Shown one piece after another: positions 2,799 through 17,840 of a stretch of DNA of 17,890 nucleotides; the stretch's first letter is position 1; the number at the start of each line of letters is the position of its first letter. Position numbers and translations under genes: made by a program. This DNA comes from a virus. Location of the stretch: the UHGV virus genome UHGV-0122684, one strand, 5' to 3'. Below the pieces are notes generated by a model that did not search any database, was not told where the DNA came from, and saw only the letters and a list, made by a program, of their open reading frames with translations.

Positions 2799-3488
2799 TC
2801 ACATTTCTGCCACTTTGAGGGCTTCTTCTTCCTCATAGTATTCAAGAGCCATTGCCAACGCAGATTCATCAAGCTGGGTAAAAGCGGCCTTTAACCCAGC
2901 CCAGTGCCCTGAATAGACACGCAACCATGTCGAACGGTCAACGCTAACCATGCGGGCCAACGCTGCACCAGCATAGTCTTTATAGGTTTCATTATTTCTG
3001 GTTGCGGCAATTTCCTGCCCTGCCAGCCATACCAGGCCAATCAGTTTCTTTACTACGCGCTCCTGAAGGGAATTATCACCCAGGCATTTCTGATAAGTTT
3101 TCCAGACGTATTCACACATCATCACCTGGTGCTTATAGCTAAGGTCAAAACCGTAGCAGTACCGCAACCAGGCCTGCTGGTATCCACTAAGCGCGGACAC
3201 TGCCCTACGCCACGGCGCGGACTCAAATTCCGCATCTTTTATCGGCGGCATTGGCCTGCGGCGGCTGCGTGTTTCCAGCACATACAGTGGCGCGGAAAGC
3301 AAGTTAACAAAGCGTGGCCCCTTCTCTCCTTCGAGTTCGACGAGATGAATTCCACGGCGCGGGGTGGCATTTTTGTCTGCTGGTGGGTGTTCACTGAAAG
3401 CCTCAAGCTGCCCTTTTGTTCCCCCAGAGAGGTCAGGTAGCGCGCGGCGCAATTCTATTCTTACAAAATTCAGGTCTTGTTGATTCAT
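2799..3488 (-). CDS. putative late-gene antiterminator (Q-like; by position, not sequence-verified)
   Basis: About 229 aa from the ATG at 3486-3488 (GGAG 11 nt upstream); the ORF track extends it to a GTG at 3509. Lies immediately after a DUF968 gene and immediately before a promoter, short leader and terminator followed by lysis genes, which is the canonical Q - pR' - tR' arrangement. Family assignment rests on synteny and size only. Confidence 0.5.
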   Translation of the reverse strand: MNQQDLNFVRIELRRALPDLSGGTKGQLEAFSEHPPADKNATPRRGIHLVELEGEKGPRFVNLLSAPLYVLETRSRRRPMPPIKDAEFESAPWRRAVSALSGYQQAWLRYCYGFDLSYKHQVMMCEYVWKTYQKCLGDNSLQERVVKKLIGLVWLAGQEIAATRNNETYKDYAGAALARMVSVDRSTWLRVYSGHWAGLKAAFTQLDESALAMALEYYEEEEALKVAEM

Positions 3489-3509
3489 GCTTCTTTGCGC
3501 TCCATACAC

Positions 3510-4565
3510 TTAAGCTTTCGCAATTACGCCGATCGCCAGCGCCCGATCCATAAAACGCAGTAGCAGCTCAAGCTGCGTACCATGCTTCTGCTCGAATGCC
3601 GGTACATCGGCGTGCAGCTCATCGTGGCACTCTCTGCACAGAGGGATCACGAAGAGGTCATGGGCTTTTGTTGCTGTACCACCCATACCGTGCCCTACGA
3701 TATGGTGCGGATCATCTGCTGGCCGTCGGCAACACTCACACGGTTGTGTTTTAACCCAGCGGGTGTACGTATCATTTACCCAGCGGCGACGTTTTGGCCT
3801 GAGCATGAAAGACTCCGGAGACTCCGGATCGACGGTTAACGTCAGTATTGGCTTTTGGGTTTCCACATCCAGGCTGTCTGACCGCCGAGCTGGTAACGTT
3901 TCAATCGGCCTGACTTTTTCCTGCATAATGCTGGTGGCCGGCGGCATAGGTACGATGTCACTTTCCCGGTAAACAGATAATAATGGTTCGTCTGGCAACC
4001 GTAGTGCCCGTTGCGCCATTCCTTCAGTGACGGCATCAGCGACACCTGACTGAACAGCCCACCAGCAAAGCTCGGCTAAAGAGAGGGAGCGCTCTTTGTT
4101 GTAGCCAAGCCCAACCAGTACGGTATCAATAACCCACTCGGCAACATTGCTCAGGGCAAGCGCCTGCAGCCTCTCCGTAGTCTGCCCACGCAATTTGTTA
4201 TCGCAATGCCAGCACACCACCAGCGCGCCAGGCGGATGCCATAGTGTTGTGAGCTCGGCATGATGGTAGTCAGAAACAGGGTACTGGCACTTTTTAACGC
4301 GCTGACGAAGCCAGTACTCAAGCCCGGACATACCACCAGCAGCAGTAATGACCCGTTCATCGGTAAAGAAAGTGTGAAGGCTGGCATCATCCAGTAGCGG
4401 TTGCTGTGCATCGGGGATCCGACCAGACGGAAGCCGGGCCATGTTTTCTGGCTCCCGTTCAACCAGCACGCGACCTGATGCAAACAGGGGCATTAACTCC
4501 CGTCCTGGCTTGAACAGCACCACGCCAAGGCGTGGCACCATTTCAGGGGTAAGTAAGGCTCTCAA
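3510..4565 (-). CDS. DUF968-like phage protein with C-terminal HNH/zinc-finger-like Cys/His motif
   Basis: 351-aa ORF abutting the Q-like gene. C-terminal region CECCRRP...HHIVGHGMGG...CRECHDELH resembles an HNH-type metal-binding nuclease motif. Size and position upstream of Q match what I recall for YdfU-like DUF968 proteins in the E. coli Qin prophage (from memory). Confidence 0.7.
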   Translation of the reverse strand: MRALLTPEMVPRLGVVLFKPGRELMPLFASGRVLVEREPENMARLPSGRIPDAQQPLLDDASLHTFFTDERVITAAGGMSGLEYWLRQRVKKCQYPVSDYHHAELTTLWHPPGALVVCWHCDNKLRGQTTERLQALALSNVAEWVIDTVLVGLGYNKERSLSLAELCWWAVQSGVADAVTEGMAQRALRLPDEPLLSVYRESDIVPMPPATSIMQEKVRPIETLPARRSDSLDVETQKPILTLTVDPESPESFMLRPKRRRWVNDTYTRWVKTQPCECCRRPADDPHHIVGHGMGGTATKAHDLFVIPLCRECHDELHADVPAFEQKHGTQLELLLRFMDRALAIGVIAKA

Positions 4566-6369: not shown

Positions 6370-6768
6370 TCAACCCACAGCTGGACATATAACCACCTCT
6401 TTTTTATATGCCGTTATGGTTATCTCAACTTTTCCCTTCGGTACTATCGGTCCCCATTCCACCAGCATGCGCTTAATCTGGCTGTCGTCTTCCCAGACAC
6501 CCGCATGCGTCAGCGCGTCAAACAGGGCTTTGTTGTAATTATCGATATCCCGGCGGCGAGCATCCGGCGGGTACAGCGTGATTTCTACCGCTGCCAGTTC
6601 AGTCGATGGCTTCGGGAGACGTCGTAATTGCTCAATGATCGCCACGCAGGCAGCGCTCTGGTATTTACGGCCATCAGCGCTAATGAGGTGACGACCGGCC
6701 AGCGGCCCCTTGTTAGGGGCGCGCCAGTAAGTGTTCACGCTCGGAGGAAAAGGCAGGACCAGTTTCAC
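6370..6768 (-). CDS. rusA: RusA-family Holliday junction resolvase
   Basis: 132-aa ORF beginning MKLVLPFPPSVNTYW, the characteristic RusA N-terminal motif, with acidic residues further on (DIDNYNKALFDAL). Start overlaps the stop of the upstream 439-aa gene. Confidence 0.85.
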   Translation of the reverse strand: MKLVLPFPPSVNTYWRAPNKGPLAGRHLISADGRKYQSAACVAIIEQLRRLPKPSTELAAVEITLYPPDARRRDIDNYNKALFDALTHAGVWEDDSQIKRMLVEWGPIVPKGKVEITITAYKKEVVICPAVG

Positions 6769-8084
6769 GCGGCCTCTCCCCGCATATTGCGAACAAGTTC
6801 AGAAGCAGCAGTAATGATTTCGCTGGTGGCAGTCCGCTCCAGCCAGAGTTGATTGATATTGGCTTTCAGCTTGTGTTGCAGTGACTCATCCAGCATGTCA
6901 GCACCATCCACCTGGTCGAATACAATTCTAACCTCCAGCGGCCAGATACGGGACTCGGGAAGCGGATCCGATACTGGTTTAGCTTTCTCACGAATGTGCA
7001 TGCGGATCTGGCGAATATTGGACCAACTGGAAACATCCAGGCTTCCCATGGCTGCAATGAAGTCAGTGCTGTTCATGCCATATTCACCGGATGCTTCAAG
7101 GGCAACAGTGCGAATACGTTCCGACATATCCAGGCGCACAGCAGCGTCATCGAATTCAATCGACAACAGCCACTCATCCACACCGAACAAAATACTCTCA
7201 CGAATAAGCAGCTTCGCTTTGTCGATCGTTAAAGGTGATACCTGAGTGAATTCCGGTGCTTCGACAGAATCCGCCGCCCAGGTATGCCCAAACTTCGATT
7301 CACTGAATGTGTATTCTTCTTTATCGCCAAACGCAGCTCTAACGCATGCCCACGCCTCGACACCGCTGATAGCAAAAATATCTTTCTGGGTGAGTGGCAA
7401 CTCTGCTTCTGGCTTATCAGCTGCAGGAGGTCTGGCAGTTACAGGTTGAGACTTGCTGGCAGCAAATTGTGGCAAAGCCATAAACGCCCGCCCTTTTGCC
7501 TCCAGTTCTGTGCGGTTGATATAGCTGAACCGCTCGCCACGCCATGACTTATCGAATACAGCTATGGCACCGGCAAAAAACGCGCTGGTGGGCTTCTGTT
7601 TTTCGTCAGCCGGTATAAACCACACAGGCAGATCGAACCCAATGCGCCCGCGAATGAATACAATGTGATCGGCATCTTCCGGCCACCACGTTTCACTCGG
7701 CGCGGCTTTTATCAGGAATACATAGCGACCGCCCTTCTCGCGCTGGGCTGCTGCGTACTTCATGATGTGCGTCATACCAGTGATCGCCTGTTTCTCGTGA
7801 TACTGCGAACGGCTATACTGTGGGTTGCCATAACCAGCGCCACCCAGTTCTGTAAGACGTTCAGACCAGTCCTGCGTCAGCGCGTTATCTTCGGCGGTGT
7901 ACCATGCCGGGCATTTCGCGTTGTCGTCGTCAGCAAACAAGTCCAGAACTAATGGACCAAATAGTGCGTTGATCCCCCAAAACAGCAGATCCGGTGTTCG
8001 CCACTGATCGCCAACTTCTTTCAATTCGTGAGCTGGTTTACTGCGCAGTTCTGCCAGCGCCTGGCAATATTTATTTGGCATCAT
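6765..8084 (-). CDS. protein with N-terminal phage Dam-like N6-adenine methyltransferase fold and long C-terminal extension
   Basis: 439-aa ORF translationally coupled to the O-like gene (ATGA overlap at 8081-8084). N-terminal about 180 aa read WRTPDLLFWGINALFGPLVLDLFADDDNAKCPAWYTAEDNALTQDW ... GYGNPQYS ... VFLIKAAPSETWWPED ... IVFIRGRIGF, matching the small phage Dam-family pattern as I recall it, but with NPQY where NPPY/DPPY is expected. No Walker A motif seen, so it does not look like a helicase or helicase loader. Confidence 0.65.
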   Translation of the reverse strand: MMPNKYCQALAELRSKPAHELKEVGDQWRTPDLLFWGINALFGPLVLDLFADDDNAKCPAWYTAEDNALTQDWSERLTELGGAGYGNPQYSRSQYHEKQAITGMTHIMKYAAAQREKGGRYVFLIKAAPSETWWPEDADHIVFIRGRIGFDLPVWFIPADEKQKPTSAFFAGAIAVFDKSWRGERFSYINRTELEAKGRAFMALPQFAASKSQPVTARPPAADKPEAELPLTQKDIFAISGVEAWACVRAAFGDKEEYTFSESKFGHTWAADSVEAPEFTQVSPLTIDKAKLLIRESILFGVDEWLLSIEFDDAAVRLDMSERIRTVALEASGEYGMNSTDFIAAMGSLDVSSWSNIRQIRMHIREKAKPVSDPLPESRIWPLEVRIVFDQVDGADMLDESLQHKLKANINQLWLERTATSEIITAASELVRNMRGEAA

Positions 8085-8947
8085 GAGCGGAACCCCGAAT
8101 TTTCTGGAAGTGAGTAGTCAACATTTTGGAAGCTTGCGCGGCTGGCTGAGTTAGCCGTCCATTTACCGTTAACGCGCTCAGGTCGCCCAGCGGCAGACCA
8201 TTTGGTCGCGCTTTGCAGGTAACCAGGGAAGTTTTTTGGAATAAACAGAGTTGCCGGACGGAGATATTGAGCCTGCTCGCTATCACGCCAATCAGCGTTT
8301 TTGTAATCCACCACAAGGCACAGATCATCAACAGTGAACCGTTCCCGCAGACGGGCACGAATATTCTCCAGCGACGTGCTGCATACCTGATAGCGTGAAC
8401 CAGTTGTCTGGTTCAGGTAAGACAAAACCTGTCTTGCCTGATCAGTAATCACAATCTCAGGGTCGGGTTGCGCCGCAACCGGACAAGAGGGTTTTGAAGT
8501 TACTTGTGGATCTTGTTTTGATTTTACTGACGGATCCCCGCCAGATTCTGACGGGTCAAAACCGCCGTTTTTGACGGATTTCGACGGGTCAGTTTTTGAG
8601 GCGTCAAAATTTGATGCGTCAGATTTTGACGTGTCAGAATCTGACAGTTGAGAAAATGCGGCAGCCTGAAGTTTCGCCACATTCAGGCGGTATACGTTCG
8701 AAGCATTACGGTTACCATTACGGCGCTGTGTACGCGTGAGCCAGCCATCTTTTTCAAGCTTTGCGATTGCCGTTCTGATAGTGCTCGGGCCTGCGCCAAG
8801 CTGGCGAGCAATAGTTTCAATTGACGGCCAGCATACGCCCTCATCACTGCTGAAATCAGCGAGTCGAGCCATGATCGCGACACTAGACAACTTCATGCCC
8901 GACGCCGCGCAACCATCCCATACGTAGCCGGTTAATTTAGTGCTCAT
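8081..8947 (-). CDS. replication initiator (O-like: N-terminal HTH, C-terminal conserved phage replication domain)
   Basis: 288-aa ORF. N-terminal winged-HTH (LSSVAIMARLADFSSDEGVCWPSIETIARQLGAGPSTIRTAIAKLEKDGWL). C-terminal YLRPATLF...NFPGYL motif, which I recall as the conserved C-terminus of phage replication-organiser proteins. The middle of the gene carries iteron-like direct repeats. SD AGGGAG precedes the ATG at 8945-8947. Confidence 0.8.
   Translation of the reverse strand: MSTKLTGYVWDGCAASGMKLSSVAIMARLADFSSDEGVCWPSIETIARQLGAGPSTIRTAIAKLEKDGWLTRTQRRNGNRNASNVYRLNVAKLQAAAFSQLSDSDTSKSDASNFDASKTDPSKSVKNGGFDPSESGGDPSVKSKQDPQVTSKPSCPVAAQPDPEIVITDQARQVLSYLNQTTGSRYQVCSTSLENIRARLRERFTVDDLCLVVDYKNADWRDSEQAQYLRPATLFIPKNFPGYLQSATKWSAAGRPERVNGKWTANSASRASFQNVDYSLPENSGFRS
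8527..8650. repeat. iteron-like direct repeats (candidate replication origin) inside the O-like gene
   Basis: At least seven imperfect copies of TGACGGGTCA-like units spaced 11-20 bp apart (tgacggatcc, tgacgggtcaaaa, ttgacggatttc, gacgggtcag, gcgtcaaaa, gatgcgtcag, tgacgtgtcag, ctgacag). They encode the low-complexity SD/SK-rich linker of the protein, as lambda ori iterons do within O. Confidence 0.55.
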
Positions 8948-9288: not shown

Positions 9289-9840
9289 TTATTTCTCCAT
9301 ACTCGAAGAGTTGTTCGCCAAGGCGCCCGGAGCTGCACACTCGCGGGCGTCACTCTTTTCTGGAAGGCAATAAACTCGTGAAATCAGGTTCAGAAACGTC
9401 ATAAGCGTTACCCGGAACTGGTAGGCGATTTCATTCAGACTGTCCCACTCCCCTTTATCAACTACACCATCATCGATGTATCGACGGTATGCGTTGACCA
9501 GATCCCCAAGCCTGCCCACCAGCTCAGCCAGCTTTAAGCCAATTTCTTCGTTCTCTGTTTCTGGTTCTGCGCCAGGGATATGAATCCCGTTATCTGTTTG
9601 ACGAGAAAACGCATCTGCTATGTAGCTAACACCGGCGGCTTTCTGTAGCACCATCGCCCATCCCATAGGGAAGATCTGATCCCCATCCACACGAAGGCGG
9701 TTAAACAATGCGTTCTCTGTCACGCCCAACCATTCCGCAGCTTCGGCGTAGCCACCAGGCAGATCGGTAATCGTCTTTTTAATCGCGACCACCAGCCAGG
9801 CTGGCTGACGTTCAACTTTCCAAATAGGTTCGTTACCCAC
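9289..9840 (-). CDS. CII-like transcriptional regulator (HTH protein immediately downstream of cro)
   Basis: 183-aa ORF starting at a GTG (9838-9840) with SD AAGGGG, 10 nt after the cro stop. HTH-like segment YAEAAEWLGVTENALFNRL. Its position (cro, then this gene, then the replication initiator) matches cII. Family assignment is tentative. Confidence 0.55.
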   Translation of the reverse strand: MGNEPIWKVERQPAWLVVAIKKTITDLPGGYAEAAEWLGVTENALFNRLRVDGDQIFPMGWAMVLQKAAGVSYIADAFSRQTDNGIHIPGAEPETENEEIGLKLAELVGRLGDLVNAYRRYIDDGVVDKGEWDSLNEIAYQFRVTLMTFLNLISRVYCLPEKSDARECAAPGALANNSSSMEK

Positions 9841-10096: not shown

Positions 10097-10193
10097 ATAC
10101 CCTCCTTTAATTGCGTAAAACGCATATTAATTGGAACATACGACTTGCGCAAGTTGCTTTGCACATCACGCAAAAAAAACATGTAATAGACGC
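10097..10193. promoter_or_regulatory. OR-like operator/promoter region (divergent pR and pRM candidates, repressor operators)
   Basis: Inverted repeats with TTGCG/CGCAA half-sites: TTGCGTAAAACGCA (10111-10124), CTTGCGCAAG (10145-10154), TTGCACATCACGCAA (10159-10173). Candidate pR on the minus strand is TTGCGC (plus 10147-10152), 17-nt spacer, TAATAT (plus 10124-10129). Candidate pRM on the plus strand is TTGCAC (10159-10164), 17-nt spacer, TGTAAT (10182-10187), ending 6 nt before the cI ATG, which implies a leaderless cI mRNA as at lambda pRM. Confidence 0.6.
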
Positions 10194-10886
10194 ATGAACA
10201 TAGGAAACCGCATAAGAGAACTTCGCACTGCGAAGGGTCTAAAAATCGCTGATCTTGCTGAAGCCGTTGGTGTCGACGGAGCGAACATCTCGCGCGTAGA
10301 AACCGGCAAACAGAAGTCATTTACTGAACAATCACTTAGCAAATATGCTCAAGCTTTAGGCGTTAGCGTTGCTGATCTATTTACTCCAGAAGGAAATAAA
10401 ACTACTGTATGTGAATACAGTGGTAGTAACCCACATTCTGGAGATGGATCTGTGTTTAGAGTGGAGATTCTTGATGTAAGTGCCAGCGCTGGTGGTGGAT
10501 TTATTCAAGGCAGCGATATTATTGATGTCATCAGGTCAATCGAATACAACAATGAACGTGCACTAGCGATGTTCGGCGGAAGAACGGCAGATCAAGTAAA
10601 AGTAATCAACGTTCGAGGCGACAGTATGGCTGAGACAATTGAACCTGGTGATCTTCTCTTCGTTGATATCTCTATTCATGAATTCGATGGTGATGGAATA
10701 TATGTATTTGGTTTTGATGATAAAATTTACGTCAAACGATTACAGATGATACCTGATATGTTGTTGGTTATATCGGATAACCCAAAATATAGAGAATGGT
10801 CTGTGGACGAGACAAACGAACACCGTTTTTACATTTTTGGGAAAGTAATGATAAGCCAATCTCAATCATTCAAACGCCACGCCTGA
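10194..10886 (+). CDS. cI: CI-like repressor (N-terminal XRE HTH, C-terminal S24 LexA-like autopeptidase domain)
   Basis: Translation from the ATG at 10194: MNIGNRIRELRTAKGLKIADLAEAVGVDGANISRVETGK (HTH), with C-terminal VRGDSM (Ser nucleophile) and VKRL (Lys) motifs of RecA-stimulated self-cleaving repressors. The ORF-track version starts at an upstream TTG (10131) inside the operator region, which is unlikely to be the real start. Confidence 0.9.
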   Translation: MNIGNRIRELRTAKGLKIADLAEAVGVDGANISRVETGKQKSFTEQSLSKYAQALGVSVADLFTPEGNKTTVCEYSGSNPHSGDGSVFRVEILDVSASAGGGFIQGSDIIDVIRSIEYNNERALAMFGGRTADQVKVINVRGDSMAETIEPGDLLFVDISIHEFDGDGIYVFGFDDKIYVKRLQMIPDMLLVISDNPKYREWSVDETNEHRFYIFGKVMISQSQSFKRHA

Positions 10887-10906: not shown

Positions 10907-10930
10907 ACCGCCTTTACGGCGGTTTTTTTA
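10907..10930 (+). terminator. rho-independent terminator downstream of cI
   Basis: AACCGCC-TTTAC-GGCGGTT hairpin followed by an 8-T run, 20 nt after the cI stop. Confidence 0.65.
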
Positions 10931-10937
10931 CGTCTCA

Positions 10938-10993
10938 ATATTGCGCAATTCGCAATTTAATACTTGCGTAAATCGCAATTTAATTTTATTGTC
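10938..10993 (+). promoter_or_regulatory. OL/pL-like operator-promoter block
   Basis: The same TTGCG/CGCAA half-site palindromes as in OR: TTGCGCAA (10941-10948), TTCGCAA, CTTGCGTAAATCGCAA (10963-10978). Candidate pL on the plus strand is TTGCGT (10964-10969), 17-nt spacer, TATTGT (10987-10992), reading into the early-left region. Hexamer assignment is tentative. Confidence 0.45.
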
Positions 10994-11962
10994 TACTCCA
11001 TAGCGAACAGGCAGGACGCCAACGAAGTAGCCGCCGGTGGCGTATGAATAACCGGATGATTCGCACGAGACATGGCGAAAGCCGAAAGACTTGAAGGCGT
11101 TTTTCTCAGGTTGCGCGCTAAAGCATAGCGGGGAGAACCTGGGGCGGTGAGCAAACCCCGCGGGGCAGGACGTGGAAATTGTCTGCACATACCAATAAGC
11201 CGTCTGGCAGCGTAACTGCCCTTTACATCTGCCCCGGCGAGGTGGCGCCGCCAAACCGGGGTAGATGAATCGTAAAGGTGTCTTCGGGAGGGGTTACGGG
11301 CTGGAGTGACTACCAGCATCGACAGCTCTATCCGACGAAACGGAACCGTCTAACCCGCGGTTGTCGGTGAAAAGTACCGTAGGGATGCCAGCTAGTCACT
11401 GGCCCCCGCCCGAAGATACCTACCACCGCGCCTGATGTGGTTAAAAGCAGGCCAAAGCAATAACAAGTACTTCCCTGTTCTGGCGGCCCGGTGTTTTCCC
11501 GTTTGTCCGGTAACCGCCAGCCTTTTTCAGGGAATATCAGCCGGTCATGGTAAGCATCTCGCAGGATTCTTACCGGGACTGGAAGAGTTACCACTTGGAG
11601 ACGGTCCTTATAAATGTCCTGGACAGTGGCGGTACCAGCACCGACAACAGCGGCAGACGTTTAACTGTGAAAACGGAGAGATGCCAGCTCCCTCGACGGC
11701 AGTGACGGCGGGAAGTAGAACGCTGACAGCAGGGAAAGACCTGCACAGGCCAGACGATATCTGAGCGCCTTTAAAAACAGATGGGAGTCGGTGGAAGCCC
11801 GACACACAACAGAAAAGGGCATCACCGGGCGACGGGCTCATAATCCAATCCACCCGGGCAAAAGAAAGCGGTCTCTGCAAACCGCCGACCAATGCAGGTG
11901 CCCTTCTCTGTTGTGTATGGAGAAAGTTCGGCGGTTGCAGCCGCCTTAACGAGGGTAAAACC
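10994..11962 (+). other. GC-rich, ORF-poor stretch of about 950 bp (candidate structured leader or non-coding RNA)
   Basis: Between pL and the first convincing early-left gene the plus strand has a single ORF of 60 aa or more (109 aa, composition not protein-like). The minus strand carries several overlapping Arg/Pro/Ser-rich ORFs in different frames, typical of GC-rich non-coding DNA. Many GC-rich inverted repeats (for example GGGGCGGTGAGCAAACCCCGCGGGG, CCCCGGCGAGGTGGCGCCGCCAAACCGGGG, GGCGGTTGCAGCCGCC). GC content is visibly higher than in flanking genes (by eye, not computed). Confidence 0.35.
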
Positions 11963-12334
11963 ATGAGTAATGACCGCATGACCGTAGTGCCAGATTTTCT
12001 TGGCGAACTGGATGCCGGCGTGTTCATGAACAAAATCGCGGCAGCACTTAATACCACCGCGCTTGGCGTTCTGAACAACGGCAACAAAGGCAAAGTAGTC
12101 CTCACCTTTGATTTTGAGCGTATGGGTAATTCCGTTGAAGAGAAGCGCGTCAAGATCAAGCACAAGCTGAACTACAGCACCCCGACACCGCGTGGTAAAG
12201 CCTCCGAGGAGGACACAACCGAAACCCCGATGTGGGTCAACAAAGGCGGGAAGCTCACCATCCTGCAGGAAGATCAGTGCCAGCTGTTCGGGATCACTGG
12301 CGCGGTGGATGGAAAGCTTAAAGCGGCTCAGTGA
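11963..12334 (+). CDS. hypothetical early-left protein (YfdP-like by position and size)
   Basis: 123-aa ORF with SD GAGGGT upstream. It is the first gene of the plus-strand early operon. The YfdP-like label rests only on size and synteny recalled for E. coli CPS-53, not on sequence comparison. Confidence 0.6.
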   Translation: MSNDRMTVVPDFLGELDAGVFMNKIAAALNTTALGVLNNGNKGKVVLTFDFERMGNSVEEKRVKIKHKLNYSTPTPRGKASEEDTTETPMWVNKGGKLTILQEDQCQLFGITGAVDGKLKAAQ

Positions 12335-12390
12335 TCCGCAACAACAAACTCACTGATACCACTTTGATCATCAGTTAATAAGGAATTTTT

Positions 12391-13218
12391 ATGTCTCAGT
12401 TAGACAGCGGTACATTTCAGCAGGTAAAAGACCTGGTCCTTTCTGGCTACCACCTGAATGATATTCATGGCCTGGCTTGCCCGACCGCATTGCTGCCAGA
12501 TGGTACTAGCGTTGAAAGCCTTGAGCGCTTTTCTCTGGAGCGTTTCCGCTTCCGTGGTGCAATGACAACAACCAGTATTGACGATTTCGCACGTTATTCT
12601 AAAGGTTACGCCAGCGCCAGCGAGCCAGCCCGTTGCTTCATTGACGCTGACAACATGACCGCTCGTTCAGTGTTCAACATCGGCACCCTGGATAATCCCG
12701 GTCACGCCGATAACGTTGCTTCAATCACCCTGAAGAAAACCGCCCCGTTCCGCGCGCTATTGCAGATCGATGGTCAACGCCTGAAGCAAAAGCAAATCGC
12801 CGAATGGCTGGAAGACTGGAGCGATTACCTCCTGGCGTTTGATGCTGATGGCAATACGATGCAGATTTCCCAGGCTGCTCAGGCTGTGCGTCGTATCACT
12901 ATTCAGCAAGCAACACAGCAGGACCATGAAACTGGTGATTTCGCTGGTAAAAAATCGCTGATGCAAAGCGTTGAAGCAAGCAGCAAAGACGTAATGCCTG
13001 TGGCGTTCGAGTTCAAATGTGTGCCATATGAAGGTCTGGGCGAACGCCGCTTTAGCTTGCGTAACAGCCTGCTGACCAGCGATGAACCCTGCTTTGTTCT
13101 GCGCATCGTCCAACTTGAAGCCCAGGAAGAAGAGATCGCCAACGAATTACGCGATTTGCTGATCAGCAAGTTCGAAGGTGAATCAGTGGAAACTTTCATC
13201 GGTAACTTTAAAGCCTAA
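12391..13218 (+). CDS. hypothetical protein (YfdQ-like by size and synteny)
   Basis: 275-aa ORF with SD AAGGA upstream. Size and position before an HD-domain gene match the yfdQ-yfdR arrangement I recall in E. coli CPS-53; not verified by sequence comparison. Confidence 0.7.
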   Translation: MSQLDSGTFQQVKDLVLSGYHLNDIHGLACPTALLPDGTSVESLERFSLERFRFRGAMTTTSIDDFARYSKGYASASEPARCFIDADNMTARSVFNIGTLDNPGHADNVASITLKKTAPFRALLQIDGQRLKQKQIAEWLEDWSDYLLAFDADGNTMQISQAAQAVRRITIQQATQQDHETGDFAGKKSLMQSVEASSKDVMPVAFEFKCVPYEGLGERRFSLRNSLLTSDEPCFVLRIVQLEAQEEEIANELRDLLISKFEGESVETFIGNFKA

Positions 13219-13230
13219 TTGCTCTGCATT

Positions 13231-13258
13231 AAATCCCCGGCGCCGCGGGGATTTATTG
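13231..13258 (+). terminator. intra-operon terminator-like GC hairpin
   Basis: AAATCCCCG-GCGCCG-CGGGGATTT (9-bp stem) followed by ATTTATT, 12 nt after the stop of the 275-aa gene and before the HD-domain gene. Confidence 0.45.
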
Positions 13259-13346
13259 AAGCGTAATTCCATTAATTATCGCCAACCGGCGAGGGATTCG
13301 TGCAACCAAAATCTGCGCGGTGCAGCGCGCCAATATGGAGAAAACC

Positions 13347-13886
13347 ATGAGCTACATTCAAACATTATCCGGTAAAAAATTTAACTACCTGACCGCCACA
13401 ATCGACGATATCGATGTTGAAGATATCGCGACAGCTCTTTCCAACATCTGTCGATTCGCCGGGCATCTGCCAGAGTTTTACAGTGTGGCTCAGCACTCTG
13501 TGCTTGTTAGCCAGATTGTGCCGCCAGAGTTCGCATTTGAAGCGCTGATGCACGACGCTGCGGAGGCATATTGCCAGGACATTCCTGCCCCGCTCAAAGC
13601 CCTGTTACCAGACTACCAACGCATGGAAACTTATGTTGATGGTCTTATCCGCTTTAAATTCGGTATCTCTCTTGAACAAGCTGCTGTCGTGAAATATGCC
13701 GATCTCACCATGTTAGCCACCGAGCGCCGTGATCTGGAAATCGATGACGGTTCGAAGTGGGAAATTCTCGAAGGTATTCCCTGCTCTGATCTCGTTCAGG
13801 TTATCCCTCTCCGTCCTGGTCAAGCCTATGGCCTGTTCATGAATCGCTTTAACGAACTGATGGATCTGCGCCAATGCGCCGCATGA
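13347..13886 (+). CDS. HD-domain phosphohydrolase (YfdR-like by size and position)
   Basis: About 179 aa from the ATG at 13347 (GGAG 6 nt upstream). Contains the His...His-Asp metal-binding motif (VAQHSVL ... EALMHDAAEAY) of the HD superfamily. The ORF track extends it upstream to a GTG at 13320. Confidence 0.8.
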   Translation: MSYIQTLSGKKFNYLTATIDDIDVEDIATALSNICRFAGHLPEFYSVAQHSVLVSQIVPPEFAFEALMHDAAEAYCQDIPAPLKALLPDYQRMETYVDGLIRFKFGISLEQAAVVKYADLTMLATERRDLEIDDGSKWEILEGIPCSDLVQVIPLRPGQAYGLFMNRFNELMDLRQCAA

Positions 13887-14050
13887 AGGTAAAAGAACTC
13901 GTAGCGGAGGCTTTTGCCTCCGTTGATGAATTGCCACCAAAGCATGCACCGCTTATGCGCGAAATCGCCACCAGACTGGAGGCTACGTTCGCAGCATTAA
14001 AAGAGTCTCTGGTGCAACTGGAACAGGAACGTAAAGGTAAAACGCCATGA
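13883..14050 (+). CDS. small hypothetical protein (55 aa), translationally coupled; not in the ORF track
   Basis: Its ATG at 13883-13885 overlaps the HD-gene stop (ATGA) and its stop overlaps the next ATG (ATGA at 14047-14050). My translation: MKVKELVAEAFASVDELPPKHAPLMREIATRLEATFAALKESLVQLEQERKGKTP, helical and charged. Perfect coupling on both sides supports a real gene. Confidence 0.45.
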   Translation: MKVKELVAEAFASVDELPPKHAPLMREIATRLEATFAALKESLVQLEQERKGKTP

Positions 14051-14301
14051 CCGTATTTGAATATCTCCAGGCTCATCCGAATACCACCAGCGGTGAAATC
14101 GCCAAAGGTATGAACAAAAAGACACCCGCGGTCGCTGGCGCATTATCGCAACTCTATGGCACCGGCCGGATTGTGAAGTCAGGTGTTCGCAAGGGAATTC
14201 CTACTTACCGTGTTAACGATATGCCGTTTGGGTGCAGTAACAGCTTAACCATGATGTTTAACCAGCTATTAAACACAGCCAGAAAGGGAGCTGCACAATG
14301 A
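14047..14301 (+). CDS. small winged-helix DNA-binding protein (hypothetical)
   Basis: 84-aa ORF. wHTH-like segment TSGEIAKGMNKKTPAVAGALSQLYGTGRIVKSG. ATGA overlaps at both ends. Confidence 0.6.
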   Translation: MTVFEYLQAHPNTTSGEIAKGMNKKTPAVAGALSQLYGTGRIVKSGVRKGIPTYRVNDMPFGCSNSLTMMFNQLLNTARKGAAQ

Positions 14302-14642
14302 GTAAATCTCTGAACGCACGTTGCATCCGTCGCTGGACCGTCGAATTTAAAGGCCGCTGCGACTCGAAACACAGTCCGTACTGGCGTAAGCACCACCTTC
14401 GCAGTTACATCCGGGAATGTGCCCTGACTACCGCTGATTGCATGGTAGAGCGTATGGCAGAGGATAATGCGATGGTAGATTTTCAGGGGACTAATCGAGG
14501 GTGGTCGCCGGAGTTCTCTGCCTGGTACCACGAACGCCGTGAACAGTATCTCAAAGAAGCTCGTGACTATCTGAACGAAGACGCCACCAATGACGAGATC
14601 GACGAGGAAATCCAGAACGAGCTGGAGGCCTGGAATGACTAA
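14298..14642 (+). CDS. hypothetical protein (114 aa), basic N-terminus and acidic C-terminus
   Basis: Start overlaps the upstream stop (ATGA at 14298-14301). Contains several Cys/His (CIRRW...CDSKHSPYWRKHH...C...C) and an acidic tail (NEDATNDEIDEEIQNELEAWND). Confidence 0.6.
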   Translation: MSKSLNARCIRRWTVEFKGRCDSKHSPYWRKHHLRSYIRECALTTADCMVERMAEDNAMVDFQGTNRGWSPEFSAWYHERREQYLKEARDYLNEDATNDEIDEEIQNELEAWND

Positions 14643-14967
14643 CTCACTCAACAAACTGGATTTAGACGACGCGCTGGATTTTGACCTTTTCGAAGGTGAT
14701 TTCGGTACTCCATGCGATACAGAACTATCGAACAAAATCGTTACCTCTCGCGGCGAATACAAATGCCACATTTGCGCTGGCGTAATTTTGAAGGATGAAA
14801 TTCACCGTAGTACGGCGTGGAAATTCGACGGCGAACTTATGTCCTATCGGTGCTGCAACGATTGCTGCGTGGCGATGGTGAAAAGCGTCAATGGTGAATA
14901 CGAAGAAGAGGACCCGATAGAAGCGCGTTACGCGCTGGGCCATCAACGTAGGGGGTGGGAAGCATGA
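14635..14967 (+). CDS. Cys-rich putative zinc-ribbon protein (110 aa)
   Basis: ATG at 14635 overlaps the upstream stop. Carries C-x2-C (CHIC) and later C-C-x2-C-C (CCNDCC) clusters consistent with a zinc ribbon. The ORF-track version starts upstream at 14590 in the same frame. Confidence 0.6.
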   Translation: MTNSLNKLDLDDALDFDLFEGDFGTPCDTELSNKIVTSRGEYKCHICAGVILKDEIHRSTAWKFDGELMSYRCCNDCCVAMVKSVNGEYEEEDPIEARYALGHQRRGWEA

Positions 14968-15620
14968 CAACTAACAGCCACCCGGCGAACGGTCTTGTAT
15001 CACTCGATCGCCTGTACCAGATACGCGAAATACTCAGCAAAGCAGCAAAACAAAGCGACGGCGGTAATCTCGGCTACGCAATGGCTGATGCTGTGAAGGT
15101 GATTAATGGGGTGATTGCATCGTTTGGTGCAGAGCCTGTGGCGTGGATAGTTCACGCTCGTGCCGGTGACCAGTTAACCAATGACGGCAACTACGTTGCT
15201 AATGCAGAAGGCATGGGTGGTATTCACTCGACTCCACTCTACACCGCCCCGCCAGCGCCAGTAGTACCGGAGGAAAAACGCGACGAGGACGGCAATACCA
15301 CTTCTGAGTTTGACCACGGCTGGAACGCCTGCCGCGCCGCCATGCTTCAGGCTGGCAACTCTCCGACAATTCCGGATGGTTACGTTCTGGTGCCAAATAG
15401 GCTAACCGCTGAGAACGGCGCTAAGGGCGTGCTATCCGGTGAGTTTTCAGAAACGAAGTTTATAAACTGCCCGGAGTGTTTTGGCGAAGATGAGTGCGAA
15501 ACATGTGACGGTAGCGGAAGGCTTGAAATTACCGTTCCTGTCACCTGGACGACCATCAAAGCTATTTGGGCTAAAGGTGTCGAGCATTTCGAAGCAGCAA
15601 CGCAGCAGGAGAATGTATAA
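14964..15620 (+). CDS. hypothetical protein (about 219 aa) with C-terminal DnaJ-type CxxCxGxG zinc-finger-like motif
   Basis: ATG at 14964 overlaps the upstream stop (ATGA). C-terminal CPECFGEDECETCDGSGR contains the CxxCxGxG signature. Pro/Ala-rich linker in the middle. Confidence 0.6.
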   Translation: MTTNSHPANGLVSLDRLYQIREILSKAAKQSDGGNLGYAMADAVKVINGVIASFGAEPVAWIVHARAGDQLTNDGNYVANAEGMGGIHSTPLYTAPPAPVVPEEKRDEDGNTTSEFDHGWNACRAAMLQAGNSPTIPDGYVLVPNRLTAENGAKGVLSGEFSETKFINCPECFGEDECETCDGSGRLEITVPVTWTTIKAIWAKGVEHFEAATQQENV

Positions 15621-16194
15621 CGTGAACAATTTAATGATCGACCTTGAATCCATGGGCAAAAAACCAAATGCCCCTATCGTCTCCATTGGTGCCGTGTTCT
15701 TCGATCCGCAAAGCGGTGAACTGGGTCAGGAGTTTTACACCGCCGTTAACCTTGAAAGTGCTATGGAACAGGGAGCAGTGCCGGATGGTGACACTATTCT
15801 GTGGTGGTTAAAACAAAGCCCAGAAGCACGATCAGCAATCTGTGTTGAAGATGCTCTGCCAATATCATCTGCCCTATCTGAACTGAGCCATTTCATTAAT
15901 CGGCATTCTGATAACCCTAAATATTTAAAAGTTTGGGGCAATGGAGCTACTTTCGACAACGTTATATTGCGCGGAGCATATGAACGTGCCGGCCAGGTTT
16001 GCCCGTGGCAATTTTGGAATGATCACGACGTCAGAACCATCGTCACATTAGGCAGAGTTGTGGGTTTCGATCCTAAGCGAGACATGCCATTCGATGGGGT
16101 GGCACATAACGCACTGGCCGATGCGCGCCATCAGGCAAAATACGTGTCCGCGATCTGGCAGAAATTGATTCCGACCACCAGCAGCGAGCTTTAA
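15613..16194 (+). CDS. DEDDh-family 3'-5' exonuclease
   Basis: From the ATG at 15613 (SD AGGAGA upstream): Exo I motif IDLESMG (Asp-x-Glu), a central WGNGATFD motif and Exo III motif HNALADARH (His...Asp). The ORF-track version (from 15481) extends upstream into the previous gene and is unlikely. Confidence 0.8.
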   Translation: MYNVNNLMIDLESMGKKPNAPIVSIGAVFFDPQSGELGQEFYTAVNLESAMEQGAVPDGDTILWWLKQSPEARSAICVEDALPISSALSELSHFINRHSDNPKYLKVWGNGATFDNVILRGAYERAGQVCPWQFWNDHDVRTIVTLGRVVGFDPKRDMPFDGVAHNALADARHQAKYVSAIWQKLIPTTSSEL

Positions 16195-16231: not shown

Positions 16232-16468
16232 ATGAGCAATATTTTCCAGTTAGCCCCCAACGAGTGGGTTTGTGAAAGCGTTCTTATCGCGGTTACCGGG
16301 CTCAAGCCCGGTACCATCCTACGGGCAAGAAAAGAATGCTGGATGGTCGGGAGGGAGTATATCCACGTATCACCTGACGGGAATCCTAAACCTTCCAGTG
16401 AGTGCATGTATAACAGAAAGGCTGTAGATGCCTGGGTCGCTTCAATGAAAAGCAAGCAGCCAGGGTGA
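16232..16468 (+). CDS. xis: excisionase (lambda Xis / TorI-like)
   Basis: 78-aa ORF immediately upstream of the integrase. Small basic protein with the winged-helix pattern WVCESVLIAVTGLKPGTILRARKECWMVGREYIHVSPDG typical of phage excisionases. Confidence 0.65.
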   Translation: MSNIFQLAPNEWVCESVLIAVTGLKPGTILRARKECWMVGREYIHVSPDGNPKPSSECMYNRKAVDAWVASMKSKQPG

Positions 16469-16526
16469 TTTGATGCCATGAAAAAGGTAAGCTCGTATCG
16501 CTCTTGGGCGTCTGGAGGTAACACCA

Positions 16527-17840
16527 ATGGATAAAGTCACATATCCAACAGGCGTCGAAAACCACGGTGGCACATTACGCATCTGGTTTAATTTTAAAGG
16601 TAAGCGTGTCAGGGAAAGTCTCGGTGTCCCTGACACCGCTAAGAACAGGAAGATAGCCGGAGAACTGCGGACATCAGTATGTTTTGCCATCCGCACAGGA
16701 ACCTTTGATTATGCAACCCAGTTTCCTGACTCCCCTAACCTCAAGGCTTTTGGTGTAAGTAAAAAAGACATAACAGTAAAAGAACTTGAAGAAAAGTGGC
16801 TGGATCTGAAACGGATGGAAATCTGCGCGAACGCATTCAATCGCTATGAGTCCGTCGCAAGGAATATGGTGCCGAGGATCGGAGGTAATCGCCTGGTGTC
16901 AGCAGTAACCAAAGAGGAATTGCTGTATCTCAGGAAAGATTTGCTAACTGGTTACCAGAATCCGACGAAAAACAAATCCCCGGCAAAAGGGCGAAGCGTT
17001 GTTACTGTGAACTATTACATGACGACAATGGCCGGAATGTTTCAGTTTGCTGCGGATCACGGTTACTTAGAAGTGAACCCATTCGAGGGAATTAAGCCTC
17101 TGAAAAAAGCCAGGGCAGAACCAGATCCTCTTTCTCGTGATGAATTTATTCGCCTGATAGATGCATGCCGGCATCAGCAGACTAAAAACCTGTGGTCATT
17201 AGCAGTGTACACAGGAATGCGTCACGGGGAACTGGTCTCCCTGGCCTGGGAAGATATCGATCTGAAGGCGGGAACAATTACCGTCAGGCGTAATTATACG
17301 AAACTTGGTGAGTTCACTCTACCGAAAACCGAGGCAAGCACAGATCGAGTGGTGCATCTTATCCAGCCCGCAATCAGTATCCTGAAAAATCAGGCTGAAA
17401 TGACAAGGCTGGGCAGGCAACATCACATTGAAGTTCAGTTACGTGAGTATGGCCGTTCGGTGAACCATGAGTGTACATTCGTCTTTAACCCGCATGTGGT
17501 CAGACGCAGTAAGCAGGTCGGATTTATCTACCGGGTCGATTCAGTAGGCGACTCCTGGGAAGCGGCACTAAAGCGCGCAGGGATCAGACACAGAAAGGCG
17601 TACCAGTCACGACATACCTATGCGTGCTGGTCATTATCTGCTGGTGCAAACCCGAGTTTTATTGCCAGTCAGATGGGGCATGCGAGCGCGCAGATGGTGT
17701 TCAATGTTTACGGTGCATGGATGGCTGACAGCAGCGCAGAGCAGATCGCAATGCTCAATCAGAAGCTGGCAGATTTTGCCCCATTGATGCCCCATAGCCA
17801 CGAGAGCAGTACGGGAGGATTATTAAAATCAGTAAGTTAA
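16527..17840 (+). CDS. int: tyrosine integrase (lambda Int family)
   Basis: 437-aa ORF with SD GGAGGT. The C-terminal catalytic region shows the tyrosine recombinase signature residues: R in YTGMRHGEL, H-x-x-R in SRHTYA, and a later His and nucleophile Tyr (QMGHASAQMVFNVYGAWM). The N-terminal region is consistent with an arm-binding domain. Confidence 0.9.
   Translation: MDKVTYPTGVENHGGTLRIWFNFKGKRVRESLGVPDTAKNRKIAGELRTSVCFAIRTGTFDYATQFPDSPNLKAFGVSKKDITVKELEEKWLDLKRMEICANAFNRYESVARNMVPRIGGNRLVSAVTKEELLYLRKDLLTGYQNPTKNKSPAKGRSVVTVNYYMTTMAGMFQFAADHGYLEVNPFEGIKPLKKARAEPDPLSRDEFIRLIDACRHQQTKNLWSLAVYTGMRHGELVSLAWEDIDLKAGTITVRRNYTKLGEFTLPKTEASTDRVVHLIQPAISILKNQAEMTRLGRQHHIEVQLREYGRSVNHECTFVFNPHVVRRSKQVGFIYRVDSVGDSWEAALKRAGIRHRKAYQSRHTYACWSLSAGANPSFIASQMGHASAQMVFNVYGAWMADSSAEQIAMLNQKLADFAPLMPHSHESSTGGLLKSVS

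Follow-up and report, generated by a model that had tools for sequence, protein, structure and literature searches.

Does a gene cassette that resembles yfdP-yfdQ-yfdR of the Escherichia coli cryptic prophage CPS-53 enable a phage to interfere with the replication of its host? This question is raised by three plus-strand genes located at positions 11963 to 13886 of the UHGV virus genome UHGV-0122684, which we analysed as a stretch of 17,890 nucleotides (the window) covering the early region and the int gene. A preliminary description of this locus had matched the genes to yfdP, yfdQ and yfdR by size and order and had proposed that they constitute a host-takeover module. Our analysis favours another function. 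With moderate confidence we read the cassette as a composite of a YfdP-YfdQ pair involved in DNA transactions and of YfdR, an HD-domain 5'-deoxynucleotidase, both encoded in the early-left operon of a lambdoid prophage. The cassette as such is already known: it is named in RefSeq, occurs in Citrobacter at 97-99% protein identity and has been noted in the phages ST64B, SfV, phiNP and LLS.

Identity of the three genes

The CPS-53 reference proteins were taken from the genome of E. coli K-12 MG1655 (NC_000913.3) and compared directly with the window proteins by BLASTP. The first open reading frame (ORF; 11963-12334, plus strand, ATG start, 123 amino acids) is a homologue of yfdP and its product shares 58% identity with K-12 YfdP over 122 of 123 amino acids (E 2e-48). 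The second ORF (12391-13218, plus strand, ATG start, 275 amino acids) is a homologue of yfdQ (57% identity over 277 amino acids, E 9e-113) and the third one (13320-13886, plus strand) is a homologue of yfdR (67% identity over 178 amino acids, E 7e-92). The latter ORF encodes 188 amino acids when it is read from a GTG and 179 amino acids when it is read from an internal ATG at 13347. A Shine-Dalgarno sequence (GGAGAA) is located 5 nucleotides (nt) upstream of this ATG, and the alignment with K-12 YfdR begins at the same codon. With this start, the lengths given in the preliminary description (123, 275 and about 179 amino acids) were recovered. All three alignments run end to end, gene order and orientation are those of CPS-53, and the spacer between yfdQ and yfdR measures about 127 nt in both. 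Judged by their sequences, the three proteins are orthologue-grade homologues of K-12 YfdP, YfdQ and YfdR, far beyond chance, and an assignment that had been proposed from size and order is now backed by direct comparison.

YfdQ matched the Pfam family DUF2303 (PF10065) over profile positions 28-269 of 269 with an E-value of 1.8e-66 (224.6 bits, gathering threshold 26.6), and the three proteins were assigned to phrog_204 (YfdP), phrog_210 (YfdQ) and phrog_318 (YfdR). YfdP is placed in its family by its full-length similarity to K-12 YfdP and by its position directly upstream of a DUF2303 gene. This family comprised 396 cluster representatives at E≤1e-3 and, according to a precomputed table, YfdP homologues bear Pfam PF27127. 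In RefSeq, the nearest relatives among E. coli prophages bear the names 'YfdP family phage-associated protein' and 'YfdQ family protein'.

For the last gene, an HD-domain product had been suggested, and the residues of the motif together with the similarity to K-12 YfdR bear this out. H50, H69-D70, E73 and D119 of YfdR align with K-12 YfdR and with the HD protein of PDB entry 2gz4 (E 1.3e-10), so that the HD motif (H...HD...D) is complete and the glutamate following HD is conserved as well. The match to phrog_318 (E 3e-96) and the relatives carry the annotation deoxyribonucleoside 5' monophosphate phosphatase, and K-12 YfdR is annotated in RefSeq as 5'-deoxynucleotidase. The similarity to the Pfam YfbR-like family stayed below threshold (E 0.0048; 17 bits compared with 25.9). 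In the composite that we propose, YfdR would be one of two functional units and is predicted to be an HD-domain 5'-deoxynucleotidase with intact catalytic residues.

Linkage of yfdP and yfdQ and exchange with rdgC

Gene linkage was followed in 80 related viral loci, which are IMG/VR contigs encoding YfdQ at an identity of at least 80%. YfdP is located directly upstream of YfdQ in 78 of these loci and YfdR directly downstream in 77. When we turned to six distant phages (Xanthomonas phage CP2, four Vibrio phages and Pseudomonas phage KT1), a YfdP homologue directly preceded YfdQ in all six and YfdR was present in one. The distant YfdP homologues were recovered by hmmsearch (E 1e-32 to 1e-45) using a profile of 51 diverse YfdP representatives. 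In CP2, the DUF2303 gene (3068-3892) is preceded by a gene for a protein of 124 amino acids and followed by a DUF1351-like gene and then by genes for Erf, an exonuclease, an endonuclease and SSB. In Vibrio phage 44E38.1, the DUF2303 gene lies between recombinase, exonuclease and RNase T genes and ssb, and a gene for a protein of 135 amino acids precedes it. By hhalign, the products of both small genes were identified as homologues of YfdP (probability 99.7). Because YfdP adjoins YfdQ in each of the six distant phages and YfdR is found in only one of them, YfdP and YfdQ form an old, always-adjacent core unit and YfdR is a frequent but separable companion.

A second line of evidence comes from the exchange of this unit. 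In the prophage of E. coli FAM21845 and in others, yfdP, yfdQ and the spacer 3' of them have given way to one rdgC gene, and the leader RNA (see below), the HD gene and the downstream operon are kept, with 83-96% nucleotide identity on both sides of the replaced segment. Of 76 loci carrying the three-way-junction leader RNA, 58 have yfdP and 15 have rdgC as the first gene; YfdR comes next in either arrangement.

Structural data are available for a distant YfdQ. PDB entry 9o7m ('YfdQ Protein') lists 36 chains of one sequence, which is homologous to the window YfdQ (E 3.8e-40, about 33% identity) and 98.8% identical to a Xanthomonas phage (CP2-like) protein. We found no publication for this entry, which is apparently unpublished, and a genome scan with its sequence gave no matches. 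The 36 chains suggest that members of the YfdQ (DUF2303) family form large homo-oligomers. Our structure model of the window YfdQ had a predicted local distance difference test score (pLDDT) of 69 and its matches in BFVD were all to other DUF2303 proteins; the PDB yielded neither an RdgC-like nor any other informative neighbour. YfdQ was also considered as a member of the RdgC family, and this assignment was rejected since neither sequence nor fold similarity was detected. The YfdP model (pLDDT 47.5) was unreliable and too poor for a structure search, and the profile of 51 diverse homologues found no YfdP homologue among the PDB sequences. The last homologue search added only three diverse sequences to the alignment that served as input for structure prediction.

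The gene neighbourhood points to a role of the pair in DNA transactions, because SSB, recombinase and exonuclease genes are its neighbours and the operon of the window includes a gene for a DEDDh exonuclease. Most likely, DNA or RecA-type transactions are what the obligate pair YfdP-YfdQ, which would be the other unit of the composite, acts on in the lytic phase. In the operon, it would take the place that RdgC has in the sister prophages, and probably its role as well. We suggest that it could be an oligomeric DNA-binding complex tuning RecA/RecBCD-dependent replication in Chi-reliant phages that have no Rec module. The comparison sharpens the question posed by DUF2303 and YfdP proteins, which can now be put for an old obligate pair with replication and recombination genes as neighbours that is interchangeable with RdgC.

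The published replication-inhibition gene set

Noguchi and Katayama (2016) reported that YfdR binds DnaA in a Phe46-dependent manner and competes with DnaB and DiaA for DnaA (PMC4776307). Initiation was inhibited in vivo by multicopy yfdQRST and also by multicopy yfdQRS or yfdQRT, and extracts oversupplied with YfdQRST inhibited initiation in vitro (PMC4776307). The preliminary description was accurate in what it stated on YfdR-DnaA binding and on multicopy inhibition. The minimal inhibitory set consists of yfdQ and yfdR together with yfdS or yfdT, acts in multicopy only and does not require yfdP; yfdQR without yfdS or yfdT did not suppress hda-185 (PMC4776307). Deletion of yfdQRST caused no initiation phenotype, and the authors concede that the effect may be an overexpression artefact (PMC4776307).

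The window contains the yfdQ and yfdR part of this set. Unlike K-12 CPS-53, which has YfdS, YfdT and TorI, it encodes no homologues of these three proteins as judged by tblastn, BLASTP and Pfam searches at E-values up to 10. The best tblastn hits in the window were short stretches located elsewhere (E 0.34 for YfdS, E 0.075 for YfdT), tblastn detected no TorI homologue in the window (E up to 10), and none of the ORFs downstream of yfdR matched DUF551, the Pfam domain of YfdS. An ORF of 221 amino acids was tried as a YfdS candidate and rejected (BLASTP against YfdS, E 7.5). It was likewise rejected as a DUF551 protein, since it shares only an N-terminal/central stretch with a neighbour gene product annotated 'DUF551' in E. 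coli, and this stretch is not the DUF551 domain. Among the 80 related viral contigs, YfdS was found in two and YfdT in none.

By these sequence searches, the published inhibitory set is incomplete in the window and in most relatives, and since the required partner gene (yfdS or yfdT) is absent, the published link to a replication block carries over only partly to the P-Q-R cassette. The comparison with the CPS-53 proteins that the preliminary description had called for thus gave matches for YfdP, YfdQ and YfdR and none for YfdS and YfdT. Its equation of the cassette with the published module holds for yfdQ and yfdR; it fails for the missing yfdS and yfdT and for yfdP, which lies outside the published set. 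The published DnaA story concerns Q, R and either S or T, not P-Q-R, and claims made for the cassette need to be corrected in this respect.

Alternative functions of the cassette

A working host-takeover module could still be assembled from the genes present. YfdR would occupy domain I of DnaA, YfdQ would assist, and a non-homologous downstream ORF would replace YfdS or YfdT; the shutdown of oriC after induction would then free DnaB and replication resources for the phage. The K-12 data on DnaA binding, on competition with DnaB and DiaA and on multicopy inhibition in vivo and in vitro support such a scenario, both yfdQ and yfdR are present and conserved in the window, and five uncharacterised small ORFs follow yfdR. 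Moreover, such phages have an O-like initiator without a helicase loader, as PMC12315714 notes for LLS, and diverting DnaB by blocking the DnaA-DnaB contact would be sensible for them. However, we consider this explanation unlikely. Apart from the hda-185 result, the silent yfdQRST deletion and the rarity of YfdS and YfdT, it has to be taken into account that the widespread P-Q-R form would lack this function if S or T were integral to it. In addition, yfdP is the best conserved of the three genes and plays no part in the published effect, and P-Q is found without R in distant phages.

In the composite that we prefer, YfdR may also bind domain I of DnaA (Phe46) and weaken the DnaA-DnaB and DnaA-DiaA contacts at oriC, by analogy with its K-12 orthologue, with which it shares 67% identity. 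A host-replication role of the cassette is possible. The authors of the K-12 study compared YfdR with P of phage lambda, since both are early phage proteins that bind the host initiator and could favour phage replication (PMC4776307). The two proteins are not homologous: lambda P is a helicase loader that binds domain III of DnaA, whereas YfdR is an HD phosphohydrolase and binds domain I in K-12. The K-12 work could not settle whether YfdR targets DnaA during phage growth, and the window, with its repressor, early-left promoter (PL) and leader, provides an inducible natural context for asking this question.

Alternatively, YfdR may be a phosphatase of deoxyribonucleoside 5'-monophosphates (dNMPs) that, while the phage replicates, regulates the supply of deoxynucleotides or disposes of unwanted dNMPs. 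Binding to DnaA would then be incidental and the function of YfdP-YfdQ unrelated. This explanation is in line with the RefSeq and PHROG annotations and with the complete set of motif residues. It can also be seen that YfdR is kept behind either P-Q or RdgC and that a conserved structured spacer separates yfdR from yfdQ, and both features fit an independent unit. On the other hand, the YfbR-like match is below threshold, and in enterobacterial prophages YfdR is almost always linked to P-Q or RdgC (77/80), which suggests a functional tie, so that we regard a role confined to the nucleotide pool as improbable.

Very unlikely, finally, is an exclusion or anti-defence function of the P-Q (or RdgC) slot comparable to that of RexA, which shares the RdgC fold and adjoins cI in lambda: the slot does come shortly after the repressor gene, accessory genes abound in early-left regions, the same idea has been raised for RdgC homologues of lambdoid phages (PMC12315714), and a link to stress tolerance and to control over the particle production of another phage has been described for CPS-53 genes, yfdQ among them (according to a preprint, K-12 yfdQ has an effect on another phage's production), but a terminator and the PL operators between repressor gene and cassette make expression from the repressor transcript unlikely, neither P nor Q nor R matched a PADLOC-DB family at E≤0.01, P-Q is elsewhere found among SSB, recombinase and exonuclease genes and not beside a repressor, and YfdQ has no RdgC/RexA-like fold.

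RNA elements of the leader and of the yfdQ-yfdR spacer

Transcripts started at PL after induction would have to run through a leader, which contains two conserved RNA elements and at least one terminator, to arrive at the cassette. This leader comprises about 970 nt between the PL region and yfdP, and its conservation is patchy and locally above that of the genes. The sequences suggest that the 5' end of the cassette and the leader are its most constrained or most recently exchanged part. Conservation declines along the cassette: in loci where identity to the window proteins is about 85% for YfdQ and about 68% for YfdR, it is still 98-99% for YfdP.

The first element (11002-11064, plus strand) measures 63 nt and begins 2-9 nt after the predicted PL start, both in the window and behind many promoter types. 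It was nearly invariant in 122 fetched loci despite unrelated upstream promoters and operators of many immunity types. A mini-ORF of seven codons (ATGAATAACCGGATGATTCGC) is part of the element and is followed by TGA in most loci. We found the element in 44 phage records, including those of Yersinia, Pectobacterium and Aeromonas phages, and it is unannotated in all of them. A Providencia T5-like phage has a copy, too. The element has an unremarkable fold energy, and its near-invariance leaves no variation for a covariation test.

An intrinsic terminator (11480-11532, plus strand; CTGGCGG...CCGCCAG followed by CCTTTTT) is predicted in the leader from sequence and fold. In 75 of the 80 sister loci, the closing stem of the second RNA element follows 2-3 nt after the end of an intrinsic terminator, the sequence of which varies. 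In the window, about 270 nt (11533-11803) that are missing from the sister loci are inserted between the two, and this insert contained no credible ORF or family match.

The second element (11804-11916, plus strand) is a structured RNA, for which fold and covariation indicate a three-way junction. It has a closing stem of 18 base pairs, an invariant inner arm (CACCGGGCGACGGGCTCATAAYCCAATCCACCCGGGC) and a third hairpin of variable length, which is represented by several unrelated sequences among the relatives. Its minimum free energy is -49.6 kcal/mol (z-score -5.3). In an alignment of 37 distinct sequences, 99.2% of the pair cells were standard, compared with 40-55% when the partners were slid. 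Four pairs showed compensatory changes, and the covariation score was reached by none of 500 shuffles. The structure was assigned to the plus strand because of its G-U pairs. Its core is present in at least 120 viral contigs and in 62 phage records and precedes yfdP or rdgC. With a covariance model of the junction, a single copy was detected in the window; LLS and an RdgC-type prophage had strong copies, and HK022, K-12 and the distant phages had none. Neither the leader nor the cassette matched Rfam at E-values up to 10, and ARAGORN predicted no tRNA or tmRNA. Since the leader ORFs (108, 88, 109 and 52 amino acids) had no credible PHROG matches and the hairpin indels of the RNA element are not multiples of three, we treated the leader as non-coding apart from the possible seven-codon mini-ORF.

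Alignment and consensus fold further indicated a small hairpin (GGCGG-TTGCAG-CCGCC; 11930-11945, plus strand) and the Shine-Dalgarno sequence of yfdP (GAGGG; 11951-11955, plus strand). Within the cassette, the yfdQ-yfdR spacer (13219-13346) contains plus-strand hairpins at 13231-13254, 13280-13291 and 13315-13330. Nucleotide identity of this spacer amounts to 90-92% in 71-73 loci and is above that of the flanking coding sequence. The hairpin at 13231-13254 keeps its pairing via compensatory changes, and TTATTGAAG comes next. These hairpins may serve as weak terminator, attenuator or processing site.

In position and size, the 63-nt element resembles putL of phage HK022, with the reservation that the promoter is predicted. 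LLS and its relatives have no N homologue, and a put-like mechanism has been suggested for LLS (PMC12315714). We tried both leader elements as homologues of HK022 put and rejected them. An nhmmer profile of the 63-nt element gave a best E-value of 2.9 in the HK022 immunity region, and this hit was not at put; the covariance model was negative as well, and the only common features were short motifs seen by eye. No second copy of the 63-nt element was found on the PR side. The three-way junction differs from put by its closing stem around two arms, by its single copy and by its location after rather than before a terminator. The obvious hypothesis is that the leader RNAs control read-through of the early-left operon. 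More specifically, the two could exert a protein-independent control of read-through or translation, of a type distinct from HK022 put. Tentatively, and with low probability, two points could be new: such an undescribed RNA gating of the early-left operon in this large group of enterobacterial lambdoid phages without N, and YfdP-YfdQ as a non-homologous functional equivalent of RdgC. Compared with the cassette, the leader RNAs are the more original lead.

Genomic setting

The window stems from a lambdoid prophage of the ST64B/LLS/phiNP type, and in its repressor-controlled early-left (PL) operon the first conserved block is the cassette. Upstream of the cassette, a cI-like prophage repressor (10131-10886, plus strand) was identified by Pfam matches to Peptidase_S24 (6.7e-20) and HTH_3/HTH_31. 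Its translation probably starts at an internal position of the TTG-initiated ORF, and its counterpart in LLS and another relative carries the annotation 'LexA family regulator' or 'prophage repressor'. A putative intrinsic terminator (10907-10929, plus strand; ACCGCC-TTTAC-GGCGGT followed by seven T), read from the sequence, comes after the repressor gene. The probable PL region (10941-10992, plus strand) contains two operator repeats, TTGCGCAATTCGCAA at 10941-10955 and TTGCGTAAATCGCAA at 10964-10978, as well as a -35 (TTGCGT) and a -10 hexamer (TATTGT). These hexamers are weak, were read by eye and remained below the threshold of the promoter scan tool, so that PL is a promoter predicted from sequence. 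A related palindrome (TGCGTAAAACGCA) is found at 10112-10124 on the PR side, and the sister loci have strong consensus promoters of other immunity types at the PL position.

On the other side, the cassette is followed by five small early-left ORFs of 58, 84, 114, 125 and 221 amino acids (13874-15620, plus strand), which gave PHROG matches only (phrog_12248, 1687 (MarR-like), 6675, 19515 and 60). Next come the DEDDh 3'-5' exonuclease (Rv2179c-like; 15622-16194, plus strand; PF16473, 6.3e-74), which was found in 50 of the 80 related loci, and an excisionase (DUF1233, 2.3e-32) together with an integrase (phrog_1, 4.6e-86) at 16232-17840 (plus strand). The genes of the cassette had been described as early genes, and their location agrees with this view: they are preceded by the repressor gene, its terminator and the operator repeats, and xis and int follow them downstream.

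The same trio occupies the same operon position in ST64B (sb35-37), LLS (gp37-39), phiNP and SfV (orf29-31) at 77-81% nucleotide identity, and the same early-left layout is annotated in LLS and E. coli prophages. Megablast gave 78-89% nucleotide identity for the cassette block in E. coli prophages and in phiNP, ST64B, LLS and other phages. The layout has been described and the trio named for LLS, ST64B and phiNP, and yfdQ and yfdP were given no function there (Genome Res 2025, PMC12315714). Compared with ST64B, LLS, phiNP and SfV, the window has a different repressor and the extra 270 nt before the RNA element, which are differences of mosaic detail only. E. coli relatives carry a ClpX-zinc-finger gene in the leader, and the window does not. 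Because its YfdQ is 97-99% identical to Citrobacter freundii proteins, the virus probably has a Citrobacter host.

A larger difference separates the window from K-12 CPS-53. The window cassette retains repressor, PL and leader upstream, whereas the immunity region, PL and both leader RNAs are gone in CPS-53. The DNA just upstream of K-12 yfdP (9338-9587 of the fetched region) is 82% identical to window positions 8462-8714, which are internal to the O-like gene. This remnant of an O-like gene indicates that CPS-53 has lost the immunity region, PL and the leader RNAs.

The minus strand of the window encodes cro-like and cII-like genes, an O-like initiator, a methyltransferase, RusA, an antirepressor and an HNH protein. 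After the O-like gene, no helicase or helicase loader was found in the window, nor does the window contain a Rec module. Chi (GCTGGTGG) occurs 18 times in the whole window compared with 0.7 sites expected, 12 times on the minus and six times on the plus strand; its positions include 154, 1511, 4059-4340, 9516, 9789, 14084 and 16175. The enrichment of Chi and the lack of a Rec module fit the 'no Rec module, high Chi' class of lambdoid phages, and with many Chi sites, no Rec module and an O-only replication module the window matches the 'LLS functional type' (PMC12315714).

Two minor observations concern genes outside the cassette. In the replication module (6765-8947, minus strand), the O-like initiator gene (8081-8947) is directly followed by a gene for a DNA methyltransferase of 439 amino acids, the N-terminus of which is 80% identical to K-12 YfdM. 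Among the small early-left ORFs, the one of 125 amino acids (14590-14967, plus strand) overlaps the preceding ORF of 114 amino acids by 53 nt, and its product has cysteine clusters of the form CxxC...CCxxCC and a weak match to DUF7576 (E 0.005).

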